From sequence record NC_070993.1: a stretch of 64,000 nucleotides of DNA; one strand, given 5' to 3'. A program made the translations under genes and the position numbers. The notes under the pieces are model-generated. The model made no database searches. It was not told where the DNA came from and saw only the letters and a list, made by a program, of their open reading frames with translations. Position 1 is the stretch's first letter; every line of letters starts with the position of its first letter. This document shows positions 4,589 through 64,000 of the stretch, piece by piece. The stretch comes from Escherichia phage vB_EcoP_IMEP8.

Positions 4589-7588
4589 ATGGCGCTGTAT
4601 CCAATCAAGTCTTTAGGTGCTGTAGGCGTAATCGCTGATCAGGCTCCAACAGACTTAGCTCCTAATGCTTTCACTAATGCTATAAACGCTCGCTTTGTTG
4701 AGCAGAGGGTTTTTAAGACGGGGGGCAATGCCCCTCTTTCTTACGTAGATGAAGATAAAGATTTAACACCTCTGTCTTTTGTATCTATGCCTTTTGATTA
4801 CTATAGCGCAGGCAATAGCTTTCTTATTGTGGGAACTAATAAGAAGTTATATAAGCTGACAGATGAAAGCTTGACTGATATAAGCCGTAAGGTTGCTACA
4901 GTCACTAAGAGGGCTTCTGCCTCTATTAAGATTTATCCAGTTGTTTCTAGAATTGTTCCTAAAGAGACCACCATCTCTATGAACTTTAACCAGACTAAAG
5001 CTCTTGAAGTTTCGGTTCTTCCAGAGGATGCTAACAATGCCGAGTTAGTTTGGAGTTTGAGTAACTCTTCATACGGTCAGATAACAGTAGACCCAACAGA
5101 TTCTAAGAAGGCTTCTCTAAAATCTCTAAGTAAGGAAGGTAATCTAGTTGTTACTGTGAAGACTAAAGATGAAACAGTATCTGCTCAGATTGCTGTTAAT
5201 ATCATTGATGGTGATTCAGGTATCTTCTTAAGCCAAGACACAGTGACTGTTCGTAAAGGAAGTAACACTACGATCACAGCTGTTACTGGAAAAACGCCTG
5301 TAACGTGGTCTACTAACAACGGAGCCATTGTATCAGTTGTTCCTAACACAAATACCCTAACTGCTGTCATCACAGCTAATGGAGTAGGCACTGCAACTAT
5401 CACAGCAGATAACGGAACGAAGACTGCTACTTGTACTGTTAATGCAATACCTCAGATCGACAGTGTTTCTTTAAGTCAGACTGATGTAACTGTTAACAGA
5501 GGTACTCAGTATATTCTGACAGCTACAGTATCCCCAGCGAATGCCCCTAATAAGAATATCACTTGGACCTCTTCTAATCCGAATATTGCTACGGTGTCTG
5601 GTACAGGAACAGAAGCTACCATCACTGCAATCACGGCTGGATTTACAGAGATTACTGCTACCACCGAAGAAGGTAGTAGGACTGCTGTTTGTACTGTTCG
5701 TGTTGATCTTGCTAGTAGGATGTTAAGATCTTCCTTTATGGCAGCACCAGAACCAGAGCCAGTTTCTGAAGAAGTTGTAGTTCCTGAATCAGAGGATGTT
5801 GTTTATTTTGCAGCACCTACATCTGGAATTGATACAACAGGGATGGCTGAAGGTAATAATTTCTACGACTATTCTAACGTAGATGATATGGAAGGTTTTG
5901 CAAGAGCCTCTCTCTATTCTACTCCTCTTGACTCTGTAACGTTGGATGTTGTTAGCGCTTCTCTCGATGTTGGAGAAGAGATAGTTATAACAGCTACTGC
6001 TTCCCCTGAAGGAGAATATTCGTATCTTTGGTCTGTTGATAAAACTGGATATGTTTCTACTACATCAGTAACAGGGAGAACACTTAAACTTACCGCTCTT
6101 CGTAAAGGTGAGATTAACGTGACCTGTACAGTAAGTCAGATGACTCAGAGAGATTACGATGCATTTGATGACTATCCTTGGTATCATGCAGTAATTTCCA
6201 ACTGTGCAGTAGCAACCACCCACTATGAAACACCTCAGGTTAAAGAGTTTGAATCTGAATACTTTGTAGATCTTCCGGGATGGGGTGAACAGACAGTAGT
6301 GGATAATGATGGGAACCCTTCGGTTAAGAAATTCAACTGGAAGTGTGAGAGAGTAAGATCTTTCAACAACAGGTTGTTTGCTCTGAATATGCGGGAGTCC
6401 AATGCATCTGGTGTTACCACTAACTATCCGCTTCGTCTTCGTTGGTCTAACTTTGCTAACGAGAACAAAGCTCCTACGTTATGGGATGACTTCGCTTACG
6501 ATCGAGTTGTGTCTTCGGACTTGGCTTCTAACATCGTAGGTCAGACTCAAGCACTAGAAAATGGATATGCTGGTTACATTGACTTAGCAGACTCCAACGG
6601 AAGTTTGATTGATATCCTACCTCTTAAAGATTACTTGTTCGTTTATACAGAGTTTGAAACGTACATTGGTTCTCCAACTAATAACACATATCAACCTCTG
6701 ATGTTCAAGAAACTCTTTAACGATTCTGGCATCCTTGCCCCTGAGTGTGTGGTAGAGGTTGAAGGCAGTCACTTTGTTGTTACTCAGAATGACGTGATCT
6801 TACATAACGGTGCAACCAAGAAGTCAATCGCTTCTAACCGTGTTAAGAACATGCTGATTAACGAGATATGTTTAGTTAACCCTTTAGCAACTCGAGTGCA
6901 TTTGCATCAGGACAAGAAAGAAGTTTGGGTTCTTTATGTAGGTCCGGGAGAACCAAAAGAAAGCTTCGCTTGTACTAAAGCTGCTGTATGGAACTACGAG
7001 TTTGATACTTGGTCTTTCCGTACTATCCCATACGCTCAGTGTATTGGTTTGGTTGACCCTCCTGTACTTGAAAGAGGTCCGATTTGGGCTGACTTCCAAG
7101 AGATCACTTGGGATGACCCATCAATCAAAGAGCTTGTTTGGAGAAAGGATGCAACTAACTTCCGCCAGAGGGTTACGATAGTAGGTTCGTTCCTACGAGG
7201 TTTCTACCAAGTAGATGTTGGTGCTTTAGATTACTTCTATGATAGGCTTAATGATAAAGTTATAGAAAAACCGCTGGAGATGAGGTTAGAAAGAACTGGT
7301 ATTGATTTTGATAACATCACTAATGAATGGAATCAGAAGCATATCAATAGATTCAGACCTCAAACAACAGGCTCTGGTACGTATACTTTCGAGGCAGGTG
7401 GTAGTCAATTCTCAAACGAATATGGTCATCCACATACATCCAAGACTTATACGATTGGTGTTGATAGGCATGTCTCGGTGAGACTGAACCATCCATACCT
7501 TTTCTATAATGTTATAGATAATGATGTTAACAGTAATGCTGCTATCAATGGTTTAACGATAGAGTTTGCTGTTGGCGGGCGGAGATAA
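4589..7588 (+). CDS. large virion structural protein with bacterial Ig-like (Big_2-type) repeats (999 aa)
   Basis: Repeated T/V/S-rich Ig-like segments (e.g. NAELVWSLSNSSYGQITVDP..., TWSTNNGAIVSVVP..., TWTSSNPNIATVSG...). Confidence 0.6.
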   Translation: MALYPIKSLGAVGVIADQAPTDLAPNAFTNAINARFVEQRVFKTGGNAPLSYVDEDKDLTPLSFVSMPFDYYSAGNSFLIVGTNKKLYKLTDESLTDISRKVATVTKRASASIKIYPVVSRIVPKETTISMNFNQTKALEVSVLPEDANNAELVWSLSNSSYGQITVDPTDSKKASLKSLSKEGNLVVTVKTKDETVSAQIAVNIIDGDSGIFLSQDTVTVRKGSNTTITAVTGKTPVTWSTNNGAIVSVVPNTNTLTAVITANGVGTATITADNGTKTATCTVNAIPQIDSVSLSQTDVTVNRGTQYILTATVSPANAPNKNITWTSSNPNIATVSGTGTEATITAITAGFTEITATTEEGSRTAVCTVRVDLASRMLRSSFMAAPEPEPVSEEVVVPESEDVVYFAAPTSGIDTTGMAEGNNFYDYSNVDDMEGFARASLYSTPLDSVTLDVVSASLDVGEEIVITATASPEGEYSYLWSVDKTGYVSTTSVTGRTLKLTALRKGEINVTCTVSQMTQRDYDAFDDYPWYHAVISNCAVATTHYETPQVKEFESEYFVDLPGWGEQTVVDNDGNPSVKKFNWKCERVRSFNNRLFALNMRESNASGVTTNYPLRLRWSNFANENKAPTLWDDFAYDRVVSSDLASNIVGQTQALENGYAGYIDLADSNGSLIDILPLKDYLFVYTEFETYIGSPTNNTYQPLMFKKLFNDSGILAPECVVEVEGSHFVVTQNDVILHNGATKKSIASNRVKNMLINEICLVNPLATRVHLHQDKKEVWVLYVGPGEPKESFACTKAAVWNYEFDTWSFRTIPYAQCIGLVDPPVLERGPIWADFQEITWDDPSIKELVWRKDATNFRQRVTIVGSFLRGFYQVDVGALDYFYDRLNDKVIEKPLEMRLERTGIDFDNITNEWNQKHINRFRPQTTGSGTYTFEAGGSQFSNEYGHPHTSKTYTIGVDRHVSVRLNHPYLFYNVIDNDVNSNAAINGLTIEFAVGGRR

Positions 7589-53126: not shown

Positions 53127-53402
53127 AACTATCTCCTATTTGATTTGGCGCACCGTGTAGGATTCCAACCTACAACCCATTTCTTAGAAGGAAATTGCTC
53201 TCTGCAATTGAGCTAACGGCGCAGAATCATTTAGATCATATCTCGCTTGGTGATATGACCACATGTTTTACATCGAAGTATATAACGAGTTCCTGTGTCT
53301 TCTATTTTACCGAACTCATCATACACATTTAAACGAATCTCTTTGATTGTCTCCCACTTGTGAATATGGAAGAGGTATTTAAACCACTTGAACATATCAA
53401 CC

Positions 53403-57124: not shown

Positions 57125-57310
57125 TAGCTGGGCCGTTGTTATCAGAACTTGCTACCTCCTCTCATGATAAAATACCTTTCATTTATGCCTTACTCGAAGC
57201 CCTCCTTGTGGCTTTTAGTATGGATTGCTTAGCCTTAGTCTTAACTTCTTCTGTCATTCCATCAAAAACACCGAGCTTAGTTAGCTCCTTACTAGGAGGC
57301 TTATAGGAAG

Positions 57311-57354
57311 GGTTTAAAGCATTAGATAAATTATGACCATAGGCATGACCACGG
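57311..57354. repeat. 44-bp direct repeat, copy A (41-42/44 identical to 63415-63458)
   Basis: GGTTTAAAGCATTAGATAAATTATGACCATAGGCATGACCACGG. Confidence 0.85.
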
Positions 57355-59522: not shown

Positions 59523-59969
59523 TCATTTTACCCTCGCCTCTTTGATGGGGTCAATGTATTTCTCAACGCCCCACTTGTGTTTACTGTCTGCGTAGAAAAC
59601 ATCAGGCGCACACTGGCTAGTCTTGGGAAACGCTTGAGGGTCTTTCGTGCTACCCTTAAACTTCTGTTTACCACGGGTGCGACCATTACAGAATATTTCT
59701 AACCTCTTCTCCTCTTCTGTTTTAGCTCCCCCGCTCTTTAACAAAGAACGTTTATGATCGGCTAACAATAACGCATCAGCACGATGGACGCGATGGCCTA
59801 CACGTTTTGCCACACTAGAAGGAACATGAGATTCAGCCTCAGCCTTTGCAGCACGACGTTTTAAACTGCGCTTACTGACGTGATTGGTTGCCTTTGGCTT
59901 CTCTTTCTCCAGTTCAGAGATAGAAAAACAACGCCCGCCTTTCATGCTGATTTTAGATTTAGCCATTAT
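59523..59969 (-). CDS. basic protein (about 148 aa, internal start MAKSKIS)
   Basis: ORF; K/R-rich. Confidence 0.4.
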   Translation of the reverse strand: MMAKSKISMKGGRCFSISELEKEKPKATNHVSKRSLKRRAAKAEAESHVPSSVAKRVGHRVHRADALLLADHKRSLLKSGGAKTEEEKRLEIFCNGRTRGKQKFKGSTKDPQAFPKTSQCAPDVFYADSKHKWGVEKYIDPIKEARVK

Positions 59970-60467: not shown

Positions 60468-60727
60468 TTTCTCAATCCCATCTTTCTTAAGACACGGCCT
60501 AGCGTTGTTTCTTGCGTGATAATATAGCTGATCGCTTCACGTTCCAACGTTTCAATTTTCATTGGTGACGGATACCATTCACCAGTAAGCACGCATTTAC
60601 ACTCAACGCCATACTTTTTAGATAGGCGGTAATGTTGACCGTTGACAAGATTCCTATAAATCGTGGTATGCGTAACTAACATGATCGTCACCTTTGATTG
60701 TATTCTTTGATTAATGCACTGAATCAA
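60464..60727 (-). CDS. hypothetical protein (87 aa)
   Basis: ORF only. Confidence 0.4.
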   Translation of the reverse strand: MIQCINQRIQSKVTIMLVTHTTIYRNLVNGQHYRLSKKYGVECKCVLTGEWYPSPMKIETLEREAISYIITQETTLGRVLRKMGLRK

Positions 60728-60793
60728 TACACTGATAAAAGAAAAGGCGCTACCCGTTAAGATAGCGCCTTATGTTTATTTGAATTATCTTAC

Positions 60794-61702
60794 TTATGCT
60801 GCCTGACGTGCCGCCATAATCTCAGCCGCTTTACGCAATACTTCCTCTTCTTCTGCTTTCGCAGCTTGCTCGGTACGGGTAGCAACCGTTGAAGAGATAC
60901 GACCGCGCAGACTTTCTAACTTCTCCTGAATAGCCGAAATAGTCTTTTCCATTTCATCAGCGTATGAATCGAGTGATTCCAGCTCCTTGCTTGATGCGTT
61001 CATCAGATAATCGTCAGAGATCGCTACCGTTGATGCCGTTACTTTCTTGATGAGTGAATCAAAGGACTTTTTAACTTTCCCCACGTCTTCACTTAAGGCA
61101 ATAGTGTTGTCACTGGTAGCGCCATTGCGCTCATCAGCCAACAATTTGACTTCAATACGGATTGCATTCAAGCGTTCAACCAAAGCGTAAATATCCTGAT
61201 TAAAATCTTCCTTGTTTTTCGCCGGAATTTGCAGATGGGCAGCCACGTTGTCATTGCAACCTTTGAAGAAGTTCGGATTATCCACTTCAATTTCACGACC
61301 TAATGCAAAGTTTTCGAAAGCATTTGACCAGCGAGCGCGATTTTGTTCCATTTTGGCCTTAATTTGCGCTTCTTTCGCATCTTCTTTCGCTTTCGCTTCA
61401 CCTTCCAGATTAATCCACTTTTTACGCCCATTTGCCGCATCGGTGTTAAACTTGATCGGAGTCAGGAAAGTAATTGCAGTGGCAATTACATCCATATCGC
61501 GGAAACGTTCGGTTAACAGAAAATCAACTGCCGACTGCAATACGTCCAGCTTTTTACCGTTACTGCGGAAGTGCTGCAAGTGCCCTAACAGAAAATTAGA
61601 AACATCTTGTTTAATCGCCGCGTTATTACTGCGAATGTTGTTAGCCAGTGCGTTAAAACCAGATTCTTTTACCAGATTGAAAATTTTAGCCATGATATTC
61701 AC
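60794..61702 (-). CDS. first gene of minus-strand early block, helical protein of unknown function (302 aa)
   Basis: SD AAAGGTGAA before ATG 61702; preceded by 2.3 kb non-coding region. Confidence 0.55.
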   Translation of the reverse strand: MNIMAKIFNLVKESGFNALANNIRSNNAAIKQDVSNFLLGHLQHFRSNGKKLDVLQSAVDFLLTERFRDMDVIATAITFLTPIKFNTDAANGRKKWINLEGEAKAKEDAKEAQIKAKMEQNRARWSNAFENFALGREIEVDNPNFFKGCNDNVAAHLQIPAKNKEDFNQDIYALVERLNAIRIEVKLLADERNGATSDNTIALSEDVGKVKKSFDSLIKKVTASTVAISDDYLMNASSKELESLDSYADEMEKTISAIQEKLESLRGRISSTVATRTEQAAKAEEEEVLRKAAEIMAARQAA

Positions 61703-62514
61703 CTTTCAATTGTAAGGGCACTATTGCCCCCGCTCGCTATGAGCCTTTTAAGCCATTATTGACTTATCAATATCCACTCAATGTTAAGTAAATATTGATA
61801 AGCGGAGCGGTCTTATCAGGAGTTAACCTTGCCGCTCCCTTATCCGTGGTGTTTCAACTGGTATCTTTAATTAGTCGCTATAAACAGAGCCGACCTGATA
61901 GCGATGATTAATCACCACAATAAGGCAGTGCGTCCGATTCTATTTAATTACATTGCTGTAACCATCGGCAATACCGTCCACTTTGCTTTCGCTCCCGCCT
62001 ATCCTTTTATATCAGCTCTTTATCGCTAGTCATCGCCCACTATGGGATACTATTGCGAAAAAGTCACTAACCGCCTAGTATTCCGGCGTTTTATATCTTT
62101 CGGCAAGTTTACTACATAAACCGACTATGTACTTTCATCATAAGACGAATCTCAAGCCGTTCGCATCGTAAACGTTCACACTAAACCTTATTGTTAAATA
62201 GCAATTTGCTACCCTTTAACCATCCCCCGCCGCCCTCAATTGGGCGTTAATTCGTCGGACTTGTCTGCCCTGATTAGTTTCTTTCACTGTAGCACCGTGT
62301 TAGCGATGGCCGCCGCTACCCTTAACCGTGGGCGATTAGCTTAAACCGTTGCGTGTACTCAATGAATCCGCTTATCAGTGGCGACTTTTCCAGTTAAGGG
62401 ATTGTAAAGCTGTTTGCCCTGATGTTTTAGGGAGCCTTACGCCGTTTTATCTGGTATGCTTTCCGATGGTTATTATCTTCCAGCATATTTAACCGATATA
62501 TGGGGACGTTTAAA

Positions 62515-63275
62515 TTATTAAAGAGCGGTAAATCTGTCAGCGTGCTTTCTCACGCTACGCAACTGTAAGCCGTTGTTTCGCTTTTCACTTAAGCGGTGAT
62601 TTGCCTAGTGAGTGCTCATTATGGACCATGATGTTTTTGCTGTCAATCACTTTTTTAATCTTTTTCGTCGTTCCCGCTATTGGGAGGATATATCAACCAG
62701 CTTTATTTGATTGAAGATTAAGCGATGAGGCTTAAACTTATGATCCATATTGTTAAAGAGCGGTGCTTCTTATTGCTTCCGTTAACGTTGTTTTGTTAAC
62801 TTGTGGTTAGTATGGACTACCTTAACCACGTTTGCAACCTTTTTTATCATCTTCTTTTATTTTCTATCCCTCTTTCTCGCTTGAATCTATGCGAAAGGGC
62901 AAGATGATAAATTTTTAAAGAGCGAGCGGCTCCCATAACACCGCTTGATAATCAGTTAACCTACGATTATTCAGGGGCATGGTATCCGTCTGCCTACGTC
63001 TGACTTGCTTCACTCACTAGGGAGTTACTTGAGCGGTCATCTTGTCTTTCTAAGCTCATTATAGTTCAGGCTTTCCGGTTGTCAATACTCTTTTTAAGAA
63101 TATTTTCACTTTCTAGCCTGATTTTTAAAGAGCGGGGCAATTTCTTGCCTTGTATGTTTTACATCGTACCCGATAGAAATCAGTATACGCGAGCTTTCAG
63201 GAAGTGCAATAGGGTAAAGCAAAATATTTTAAACTTTTTCACTATAGGAAGGTAAAAGAGCGGGCGCACGTGATA
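62515..63275. repeat. iteron-like array: five dispersed copies of TTTAAAGAGCGG-type motif
   Basis: Copies near 62519, 62764, 62925, 63134, 63256 in ORF-free region. Confidence 0.6.
63068..63095 (-). promoter_or_regulatory. near-consensus sigma70-type promoter on minus strand (TTGACA-N16-TATAAT)
   Basis: Plus-strand TGTCAA at 63090-63095 and ATTATA at 63068-63073 give consensus -35 and -10 hexamers directed leftward. Confidence 0.5.
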
Positions 63276-63373
63276 CATCATAGAAAACGGCTTGTAAAGC
63301 GATATTTAGCGGCCTAAAACGCACTATAGCGAGCTAAAAGGGAGTAAGGAATACAATCACCTTAGAAAAGAAA

Positions 63374-63401
63374 AAAGCCTCATGGCGAGGCTTGTGGGGG
63401 G
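63374..63401 (-). terminator. rho-independent terminator (minus strand)
   Basis: GCCTC-ATGGC-GAGGC hairpin followed by T-run on minus strand. Confidence 0.45.
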
Positions 63402-63414
63402 GGGGGTTTAAAGC

Positions 63415-63458
63415 ATTAGGTACATTATGACCATAGGCATGACCACGGGTAAACTATT
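63415..63458. repeat. 44-bp direct repeat, copy B, immediately preceded by G11 homopolymer
   Basis: GGTTTAAAGCATTAGGTACATTATGACCATAGGCATGACCACGG. Confidence 0.85.
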
Positions 63459-64000
63459 TCTACTATATAGGACGGGGAACACACAACCGCATAACAGACC
63501 ACGGGGAAACATAGCAAGATAATGCGGTAATAATATTCCACTTAAATAATTAGTTAACTATTAATAGCATTACTCAAACATCAAAAACCGTTCGTACTAC
63601 GTACTCACGCACGCTGAAAAAGAAAAGAATAAACATCAATTATTAAAAGAAATATAATCATCCACTTAATTAATACATACATCATTATTGCACTCATAAT
63701 CATTACTATTGAAACTATTTACATTCAAACTATGGGGAGCTGCGACTGTTACATGACGGTATTATATCGCCTTAAACTAATCGTTATACAGACCTTTATA
63801 CAGTGCTAGCCTTTCTCTCACTCTTTAAAGGGGAACTAAATAAACGGGTGGGTAATGAATAGGATGGTATACACGGGGAAAGAATAACGGGGAGTAAGCA
63901 CGGGGAAACGCTGGAACGTGGAAGGAGGTGTAAAGGCATTGCCAATAACCCTTTTTTAAATGAGGACTCCCCCCTTTTAGGAATTCGTCGCGGAGCGCCT

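Follow-up and report, generated by a model that had tools for sequence, protein, structure and literature searches.

A putative rRNA operon-like control region with boxA elements and a large conserved leader RNA at the right end of a phiEco32-like phage genome

The 64,000-nucleotide stretch of Escherichia phage vB_EcoP_IMEP8 analysed here (sequence record NC_070993.1, referred to as the window) ends with 2.3 kb that an original prediction, made from the sequence alone, had described as free of open reading frames (ORF) and rich in repeats. Our analysis suggests that this region is probably a right-end non-coding control region organised as a miniature rRNA operon (rrn), with tandem sigma70 promoters and boxA elements in front of a large structured leader RNA, in which Nus-factor antitermination would serve both the leader and the early transcript. 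No ORF of at least 60 amino acids (aa) was found between 61703 and 64000, as had been claimed, the largest being 58 aa (+ strand, 63079-63255) and 49 aa (− strand). The first early gene, a homologue of phi32_124 (60794-61693, − strand) whose product is referred to as gp124, has its true start at an ATG at 61693 (AAAGGTGAATATCATG, as annotated in relatives), and therefore the non-coding stretch spans 61694-64000.

The dispersed repeat TTTAAAGAGCGG of the original prediction is the reverse complement of GCTCTTTAANA, and on the − strand the motif reads (C)CGCTCTTTAA(A/C/T)AAT. Judging by its sequence it is an rrn-type boxA, an identity that the original prediction had not recognised. Four of the five copies initially listed are real and non-random (GCTCTTTAANAA occurs five times in 64 kb versus 0.07 expected, with four occurrences in the region, all on the − strand), whereas the fifth is degenerate. 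The exact 12-mer occurs once only and three further copies are one base off. On the + strand the motif occupies 62515-62526, 62750-62761, 62912-62923, and 63122-63133, at irregular spacing (~210, 162, and 235 bp); several coordinates in the original prediction are shifted by 10-12 nt. All four copies match perfectly GYTCTTTAANA, the consensus derived for γ-proteobacterial NusB/NusE sites (PMC5725501). Both boxA-1 (63123-63133, − strand) and boxA-2 (62913-62923, −) read GCTCTTTAAAA, followed in boxA-2 by ATTTATCA as in the rrnB leader. The core of boxA-3 (62751-62761, −), GCTCTTTAACA, is identical to that of rrn boxA, and boxA-4 (62516-62526, −), which reads GCTCTTTAATA and is invariant in the alignment described below, forms the 5′ edge of the structured leader. 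The degenerate boxA-like element at 63253-63262 (−), CGCTCTTTTA(C), reads CGCTCTTTTAC on the − strand and departs from the consensus at positions 8-9. We fetched the rrnB leader of MG1655 and compared it directly: it reads TGCTCTTTAACAATTTATCAGAC (in a longer extract, ...GCGGCACTGCTCTTTAACAATTTATCAGAC...), and boxA-2 with its flank reads CGCTCTTTAAAAATTTATCATC. A BLAST search of the 66-nt boxA-2 segment against E. coli genomes gave no match, the query being too short.

At a distance of ~40-130 nt upstream of each boxA copy, the same strand has a sigma70 promoter-like site, and the repeats recur in related genomes, since all 21 relatives compared, from three genera, have three to five perfect copies on the early-transcribed strand inside the promoter array. 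Moreover, 12 nt upstream of boxA-4 there is a boxB-like hairpin (AGCGUG-AGAAAG-CACGCU, 62539-62556, −; helix 2 of the leader fold), in which three of the six pairs are compensatory, and which resembles rrnB boxB GCCGCUGAGAAAAAGCGAAGCGGC and stands in the rrn order, i.e. boxB then boxA. In the literature, boxA is described as both required and enough for the rrnTAC (NusA, NusB, NusE, NusG, SuhB, and S4) to assemble (PMC10250234), and stand-alone boxA elements shield long untranslated CRISPR transcripts from Rho (PMC7665894). Elsewhere in the window, the perfect boxA consensus GCTCTTTAACA is also found at 59733-59743 on the + strand, antisense inside a − strand early gene, and is kept at the equivalent place in EcoN5, O18-011, 172-1, and N1203; it may be a coding coincidence or a signal on an antisense transcript.

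An early promoter array was among the roles first proposed for the region, and this holds, with two near-consensus sigma70 promoters and two weaker candidates that all point leftward, into the early genes. The near-consensus promoter already singled out, which we name PB, is found by promoter scan at 63085..63058 on the − strand rather than at 63068-63095; it reads TTGACA-16-TATAAT, i.e. 12/12 consensus positions, with an A/T-rich UP-like stretch upstream. PD (62618-62646, −; promoter scan) reads TTGACA-17-CATAAT (11/12), has an UP-like AAAAAGATTAAAAAAG stretch, and its core is invariant in 22/22 sequences from three genera. The candidate PA (63182-63209, −), TTGCAC-16-TATACT, was read from the sequence and falls under the scan threshold, its −35 being weak. 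The candidate PC (62809-62837, −), TTGCAA-17-CATACT, is stronger in relatives (TTGACA-16-TAAGCT or TTGACA-16-TAGAAT). After PC, MN05, ECBP2, KBNP1711, SGF2, and TH42 have an inserted ~130-nt cassette that brings hairpins and a boxA of its own, AAACGCTCTTTAACAAT (columns ~180-430 of alignment A2). From such sequence comparisons, promoter/boxA units appear to behave as shuffled modules. Three sigma70 promoters have been described in this spacer in the SU10 paper, also for phiEco32 (PMC4281155); the promoter array and the terminal repeat, which is treated below, are already published biology.

What the array precedes is a structured untranslated leader RNA of 916 nt (61697-62612, −), which extends from approximately the PD start site to the Shine-Dalgarno (SD) sequence of the first early gene. 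A megablast search with 61703-64000 matched 97 phage records, all of them Escherichia/Shigella phiEco32-like podophages of the subfamily Gordonclarkvirinae. The segment 61703-62520 is present at full length in 96/96 records, with 74-97% identity and almost no indels, and is almost always unannotated. Over the 96 records the leader is at least as conserved as the genes beside it, and in distant relatives it is conserved better than the flanking genes. Its identity in SU7 is 85.5%, versus 74.7 and 69.1% for the flanking genes, and in SU7 and IME267 it is 85-86%, versus 75% for gp124 and 69-75% for the next genes.

To describe its fold, we aligned 22 sequences (alignment A1, 62612-61695, − strand) and derived an RNAalifold consensus, which contains 233 pairs in 38 helices. 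Standard pairs occupy 99.0% of cells in this alignment. Double-sided changes affect 77 pairs, versus 8-10 in controls with partners slid by 1-3 columns, and 342 cells versus 13-31 in the same controls; none of 500 column shuffles matched the observed values. G-U cells outnumber A-C cells by 527 to 24, an excess that identifies the folding strand as that of the early transcript, and pairing is 99.0% on the − strand versus 89.2% when the opposite strand is folded. The single-sequence minimum free energy (MFE) z-score is −5.95, and 98.3-99.6% of the pairs are retained in seven metagenomic relatives that were held out of the alignment and diverge by 5-6%. Leader substitutions track base-pairing, not codon structure; the − strand contains no ORF of at least 25 aa from 61703 to 62846, and no ORF is conserved throughout the leader alignment. 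Compensatory changes, strand specificity, and lack of coding potential together mark the leader as a conserved structured RNA.

The fold is organised in domain 1 (~62508-62221, −), with a closing helix that shows covariation, domain 2 (~62194-61917, −), for which helices 17 and 18 form the closure, and, further 3′, a row of hairpins (61916-61715, −) that extends down to the SD sequence. The 11-bp inverted repeat reported earlier is real and belongs to these hairpins. It lies at 61763-61773/61792-61802, however, and not at 61775-61814, and it is not isolated: it is helix 35 of the ~230-pair fold, with five compensatory pairs. An invariant GGUUAA(A)GGGUAGC occurs twice in the leader, and a boxA-like GCUAUUUAACAAUAAGG, which departs from boxA at the critical C4, is also invariant and is paired in the consensus fold; these invariant motifs are at ~62320-62305, 62221-62208, and 62205-62189 (−). 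Outside the leader, a conserved 69-nt hairpin (62843-62911, −) directly follows boxA-2, with 19 pairs that are 98-100% paired, one compensatory pair (AU/GC, 14:6). The short conserved hairpins between promoters show little covariation in general. The set of non-coding RNAs suggested in the original prediction therefore survives in an altered form, as one large covariation-supported leader RNA plus short conserved inter-promoter hairpins. The description of the region as CG-rich is right for the CpG dinucleotide (observed/expected ratio of 1.15 in the region and 1.28 in the leader, 61694-62612, versus 0.69 elsewhere), and wrong for G+C content (0.41 versus 0.42).

As judged by sequence and covariance searches, the leader RNA would represent a new family, absent from Rfam. 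Rfam cmscan of 60500-64000 on both strands at E ≤ 1 found no match, covariance models of GOLLD, ROOL, OLE, HEARO, rRNA, and ribosomal protein leaders included, and ARAGORN found no tRNA or tmRNA in the region. The only tRNA known for phiEco32-like phages, tRNA-Arg(TCT), is at 53146-53222 (−). Scanning viral contigs with the invariant RNA motifs gave 18 stretches, of which only the five from known phages were real; the same scan of metagenome contigs gave 47 stretches, seven from close Kuravirus relatives and the rest due to chance; and two motif patterns gave 0 and 29 matches in genome contigs, all due to chance. These motif-seeded scans of viral, metagenomic, and genomic collections thus revealed no leader homologue outside Gordonclarkvirinae. 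The single nhmmer match in the genome contigs, to a Methylobacter metagenome-assembled genome (E = 0.0013), lies antisense to an ORF resembling an integrase and was rejected as a chance match that arose from the seed motif.

The gene behind the leader shares its distribution. By tblastn, gp124 is confined to the same 96 records, and a search of IMG/VR with the gp124 protein found only five relatives, all close; leader RNA and gp124 always occur together. gp124 belongs to a PHROGs family of unknown function (phrog_13018), and its only Pfam matches are sub-threshold and of coiled-coil type.

From this layout, we infer the following sequence of events. Post infection, host sigma70 RNA polymerase would start at the tandem strong UP-like promoters and transcribe leftward. 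The nascent RNA would present an rrn-type boxA (GCUCUUUAANA) ~40-130 nt from each start, with the boxB-like hairpin before the last one. boxA would bind host NusB-NusE(S10) and thereby seed the assembly of an antitermination complex of Nus factors, as happens in rrn operons and CRISPR arrays. The modified polymerase would be Rho-resistant, and probably faster, and would cross the 0.9-kb structured untranslated leader and the long early operon without premature termination. The tethered 5′ end may, in addition, help the long-range helices of the leader to form. By analogy with T7, one may speculate that fast, non-backtracking transcription of a structured leader pulls the genome into the cell.

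Several observations weigh against this rrn-like reading. No boxC-like GU-rich element follows any boxA copy, and two of the four promoters, PA and PC, are weak matches in this phage. At the position of boxA-2, phiEco32 and seven other relatives have unrelated sequence instead, which implies that not every unit is obligatory. The helix predicted between the boxA-4 flank and the SD region (62533-62523 with 61707-61697), which covers AAAGGUGAAU, the SD sequence of gp124, consists of invariant columns and is without covariation support, and in the single-sequence MFE structure boxA-4 pairs instead with an invariant GAGCGG at ~61730. As a mere suggestion from these structure predictions, the closure formed by this helix would parallel the leader-trailer helix of rRNA and might control translation of gp124 as well. 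Finally, recent work quoted in PMC5725501 argues for an intrinsic resistance of rRNA to Rho, with Nus factors acting mainly in its folding, and hence the anti-Rho part of the model may be secondary.

The alternative that fares best, although we rate it as somewhat improbable, is that the leader is primarily a stable trans-acting non-coding RNA (ncRNA), processed for example by RNase III/RNase E near the leader-trailer helix like pre-16S rRNA, and acting as a sponge, a scaffold, or an anti-defence decoy. The promoters and boxA elements would then serve mainly to make and fold the RNA, and this alternative is compatible with the rrn-like module and extends it. In its size, its multi-domain fold, its invariant loops, and its long-range helices, the leader has the traits of functional ncRNAs and not those of simple untranslated regions (UTR), and the better conservation of the leader than of neighbouring genes, its location behind rrn-like signals, and the predicted ability of its ends to pair point in the same direction. 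On the other hand, the 3′ end of the leader shows neither a terminator nor an evident processing site, no homologue outside Gordonclarkvirinae hints at a function, and the leader adjoins the gp124 SD sequence, which makes a purely cis role equally possible. Tentatively, a ~0.9-kb ornate RNA of Gordonclarkvirinae phages might be made and folded like rRNA, from rrn-like promoters and through a boxA-nucleated Nus complex and a leader-trailer-type closure, and then be a stable RNA early in infection that, for example, titrates host ribosome-biogenesis, RNA-decay, or defence factors. Such an RNA would define a new ncRNA class in phages, and its production would be the first case of a virulent phage co-opting the rrn antitermination/chaperone machinery without an N-like protein.

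A cis-acting role, as a 5′ UTR through which gp124 and the early operon would be controlled in their translation or stability, is in our view rather doubtful. It could operate through sequestration of the SD sequence by the boxA-4 flank or through shielding of the 5′ end from RNases, and boxA could even repress, as in the suhB leader. The folded RNA may also combine cis- and trans-acting roles. Such a role finds support in the predicted helix over the gp124 SD sequence, in the constant association of leader and gp124, and in the Nus/boxA-dependent SD occlusion documented for suhB (PMC5725501). However, that helix is the one that lacks covariation support, ~230 pairs in several closed domains far exceed what known translational operators need, and the boxA copies are at least 870 nt from the SD sequence, whereas the suhB mechanism was found with boxA near the start codon.

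We consider it most unlikely that the repeats are DNA-level sites (origin iterons, sites for DNA-binding proteins, or recombination hot spots) and that the fold reflects single-stranded DNA hairpins used in replication or packaging. The region does adjoin the genome terminus, promoter/boxA units are shuffled, duplicated, and replaced among relatives like cassettes, and single-stranded DNA hairpins also tolerate G-T wobble. Yet all repeat copies have one orientation and irregular spacing, each follows a promoter, and the motif is a perfect rrn boxA including its flank, and the origin iterons offered in the original prediction are therefore not supported. Furthermore, the structure shows strand specificity and directly follows strong promoters, and neither an initiator gene nor an AT-rich unwinding element was found. 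That the region is densely coding for small proteins under ORF thresholds is less credible still: ORFs of 30-60 aa are annotated in some records (e.g. PHANOTATE calls in N1203) and a 23-codon GTG ORF recurs in 18/22 leaders, but that ORF is broken in the other four, none is present in all relatives, and neither the lack of − strand ORFs of at least 25 aa nor the pairing-driven substitutions described above fit a coding sequence. ToxI-like, processing-site, anti-SD mimic, and phi29 pRNA analogue readings were dropped upon boxA identification or for want of a supporting feature.

The genes left of the region are all on the − strand. By sequence comparison, the window is a Kuravirus (phiEco32-like) genome that ends exactly at its right physical end, because 63808-63983 aligns with the terminal repeat of phiEco32 (phiEco32 1-176, 89.9% identity). 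Bases 1-193 of phiEco32 are 100% identical to its last 193 bases, and 63472-63983 aligns to the final 500 nt of phiEco32, stopping 17 nt short of its end. By homology, a direct terminal repeat of 193 bp would thus occupy 63808-64000, in line with the 193-bp repeat published for phiEco32 and SU10 (PMC4281155). The reading of the region as a terminal-repeat region, one of those first proposed, applies to the last 193 bp and not to the rest. The first 3 kb of the window gave no match to the phiEco32 left end, and the left end of the genome is outside the window.

phiEco32 has the same ORF-free gap (72787-74730, ~1.95 kb), followed by four small genes (125-128; positions 4707-7043 of the phiEco32 sequence compared). 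These phi32_125-128 genes are missing here, as in EcoN5, with a junction at 63448/63472 relative to phiEco32, and their terminator is kept. Other relatives (MN05, PE006, and O18-011) have different small genes at the right end, which from these comparisons appears to be a hot spot of gene turnover. The intrinsic terminator (63375-63406, −; terminator scan) consists of AAGCCTCGCCATGAGGCTT then a T-run, the terminator proper being at 63393-63375 (−), with a C11 tract before it. This tract is the G11 tract of the original prediction, which is present on the + strand at 63396-63406 instead of 63406-63416. The terminator is homologous to one annotated in SU10 downstream of CDS121, and its sequence suggests that it is the relic terminator of a small right-end operon deleted in the IMEP8 phage.

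A 45-bp direct repeat marks the same junction. Its right-hand copy (63404-63448, −) sits exactly where genes 125-128 are missing, and its other copy (57310-57354; 95.6% identity) is 6.1 kb away. The − strand of the repeat contains CATAAT, and the right-hand copy also contains TAATGTACC, which matches 7/9 positions of the phiEco32 gp36-sigma promoter motif tAATGTAtA; the repeat could be a promoter or a recombination site.

A second family of short repeats, (C)ACGGGGAA, is dispersed over 63444-63908 (+), and its original description was accurate, with three exact and two one-mismatch copies of CACGGGGAA, all in 63444-63907 (+). Every exact ACGGGGAA copy of the window falls in this stretch. The copies at 63444, 63471, and 63500 are ~300-360 bp inward of the terminal repeat boundary, and those at 63872 and 63899 are inside the terminal repeat, 27 bp apart. 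They occur at the same places in phiEco32, SU10, EcoN5, MN05, O18-011, 172-1, and N1203, and were not found in SU7, NC-B, PAS59, and LAMP, i.e. they are kept in Kuravirus proper and not in more distant genera. They are candidates for a function at the terminus or in packaging.

The boxA elements and the leader RNA appear unreported. No mention of boxA, Nus factors, or structured/non-coding RNA for phiEco32-like phages was found in the searchable literature, a scope outside which Savalia 2008 and Pavlova 2012 fall, where a prior mention of boxA is possible. What is new about the boxA array is its setting, the element itself being known. The array suggests a means by which phiEco32-like phages could take host polymerase across an extended untranslated stretch and a ~30-kb leftward transcription unit. 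If this is true, stand-alone rrn-type boxA would extend beyond rRNA, suhB, and CRISPR arrays to a virulent phage, in multiple copies. With its unusually clean covariation support for a large RNA, the leader is a good candidate for structure determination, and there is appreciable upside if it is a free-standing functional molecule. The finding also bears on annotation, as pipelines leave 2 kb of this region blank or fill it with spurious small ORFs, in a phage group in active use for therapy and as a model set (ES17 and the BASEL phages Bas86-94).

In Salmonella phage 7-11, whose antitermination strategy "remains to be defined" according to its authors (PMC8948821), ~1.05 kb of G+C-rich sequence without ORFs separates the right end from the first early gene gp151 (positions 4865-5917 of the 7-11 sequence compared), and this stretch might be an analogous structured leader. 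The 7-11 right end showed no boxA consensus and, by nhmmer, nothing similar to the leader of Kuravirus, and no relationship of gp151 to gp124 could be detected; as 7-11 is without boxA, the antitermination answer proposed here would apply to the Kuravirus group. Among large RNAs, GOLLD, ROOL, and OLE (PMC12286853) share with the leader a length of several hundred nt, many covarying helices, a multi-domain fold, and an association with phages. Unlike them, the leader gave no match in the cmscan above, is the 5′ leader of an mRNA instead of a free-standing gene beside tRNAs, and is confined to Gordonclarkvirinae of E. coli/Shigella.

The T7 A1-A2-A3 promoters are similar in that strong host RNA polymerase promoters are clustered in a non-coding stretch beside the terminal repeat of a podovirus and point into the early genes, and T7 too has short repeats near its terminal repeat. 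However, the T7 non-coding stretch is shorter than 1 kb, and we know of no boxA array or large structured leader in its early region. The parallel with lambda nutL/nutR is one of logic, as a boxA soon after an early promoter of a phage transcript would serve to modify host RNA polymerase. The lambda boxA, CGCUCUUA, is a weaker NusB/E site, behind which stands a 15-nt boxB hairpin that protein N binds, whereas the boxA of the virulent phage studied here is of the full rrn type and without a lambda-like boxB downstream: the hairpin that follows boxA-2 measures 69 nt and does not resemble boxB, and the other copies precede A/T-rich sequence. To our knowledge, no N-like protein is known in the phiEco32-like group; no N-like gene is annotated in any relative, the proteins themselves not having been searched for N homology.

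E. coli rrn operons have UP-element promoters P1/P2, a boxB-boxA-boxC leader on which the rrnTAC forms, and a leader-trailer helix around 16S rRNA. In common with them, the phage region has tandem strong sigma70 promoters with A/T-rich upstream stretches, an identical boxA core (GCUCUUUAACA at 62761-62751) with the ATTTATCA flank at boxA-2, and a boxB-like GAGAAAG-loop hairpin just upstream of boxA-4 in the order boxB then boxA, followed by a long, untranslated, highly structured RNA with ends that are predicted to be able to pair. The phage differs in having four boxA elements, one per promoter, where an rrn leader has one, in being without boxC, in that its structured RNA is not rRNA and has protein-coding early genes directly behind it, and in that its closing helix is short and its recruitment of Nus factors putative. 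The boxA of CRISPR arrays (PMC7665894) is similarly a stand-alone rrn-type element before a long untranslated transcript, where it prevents Rho termination, and in the suhB leader a boxA with the same GYTCTTTAANA consensus, near the SD sequence, regulates translation (PMC5725501). In contrast to these chromosomal elements, the boxA described here resides in a phage, is present in several copies, and is linked to a conserved RNA fold of large size.

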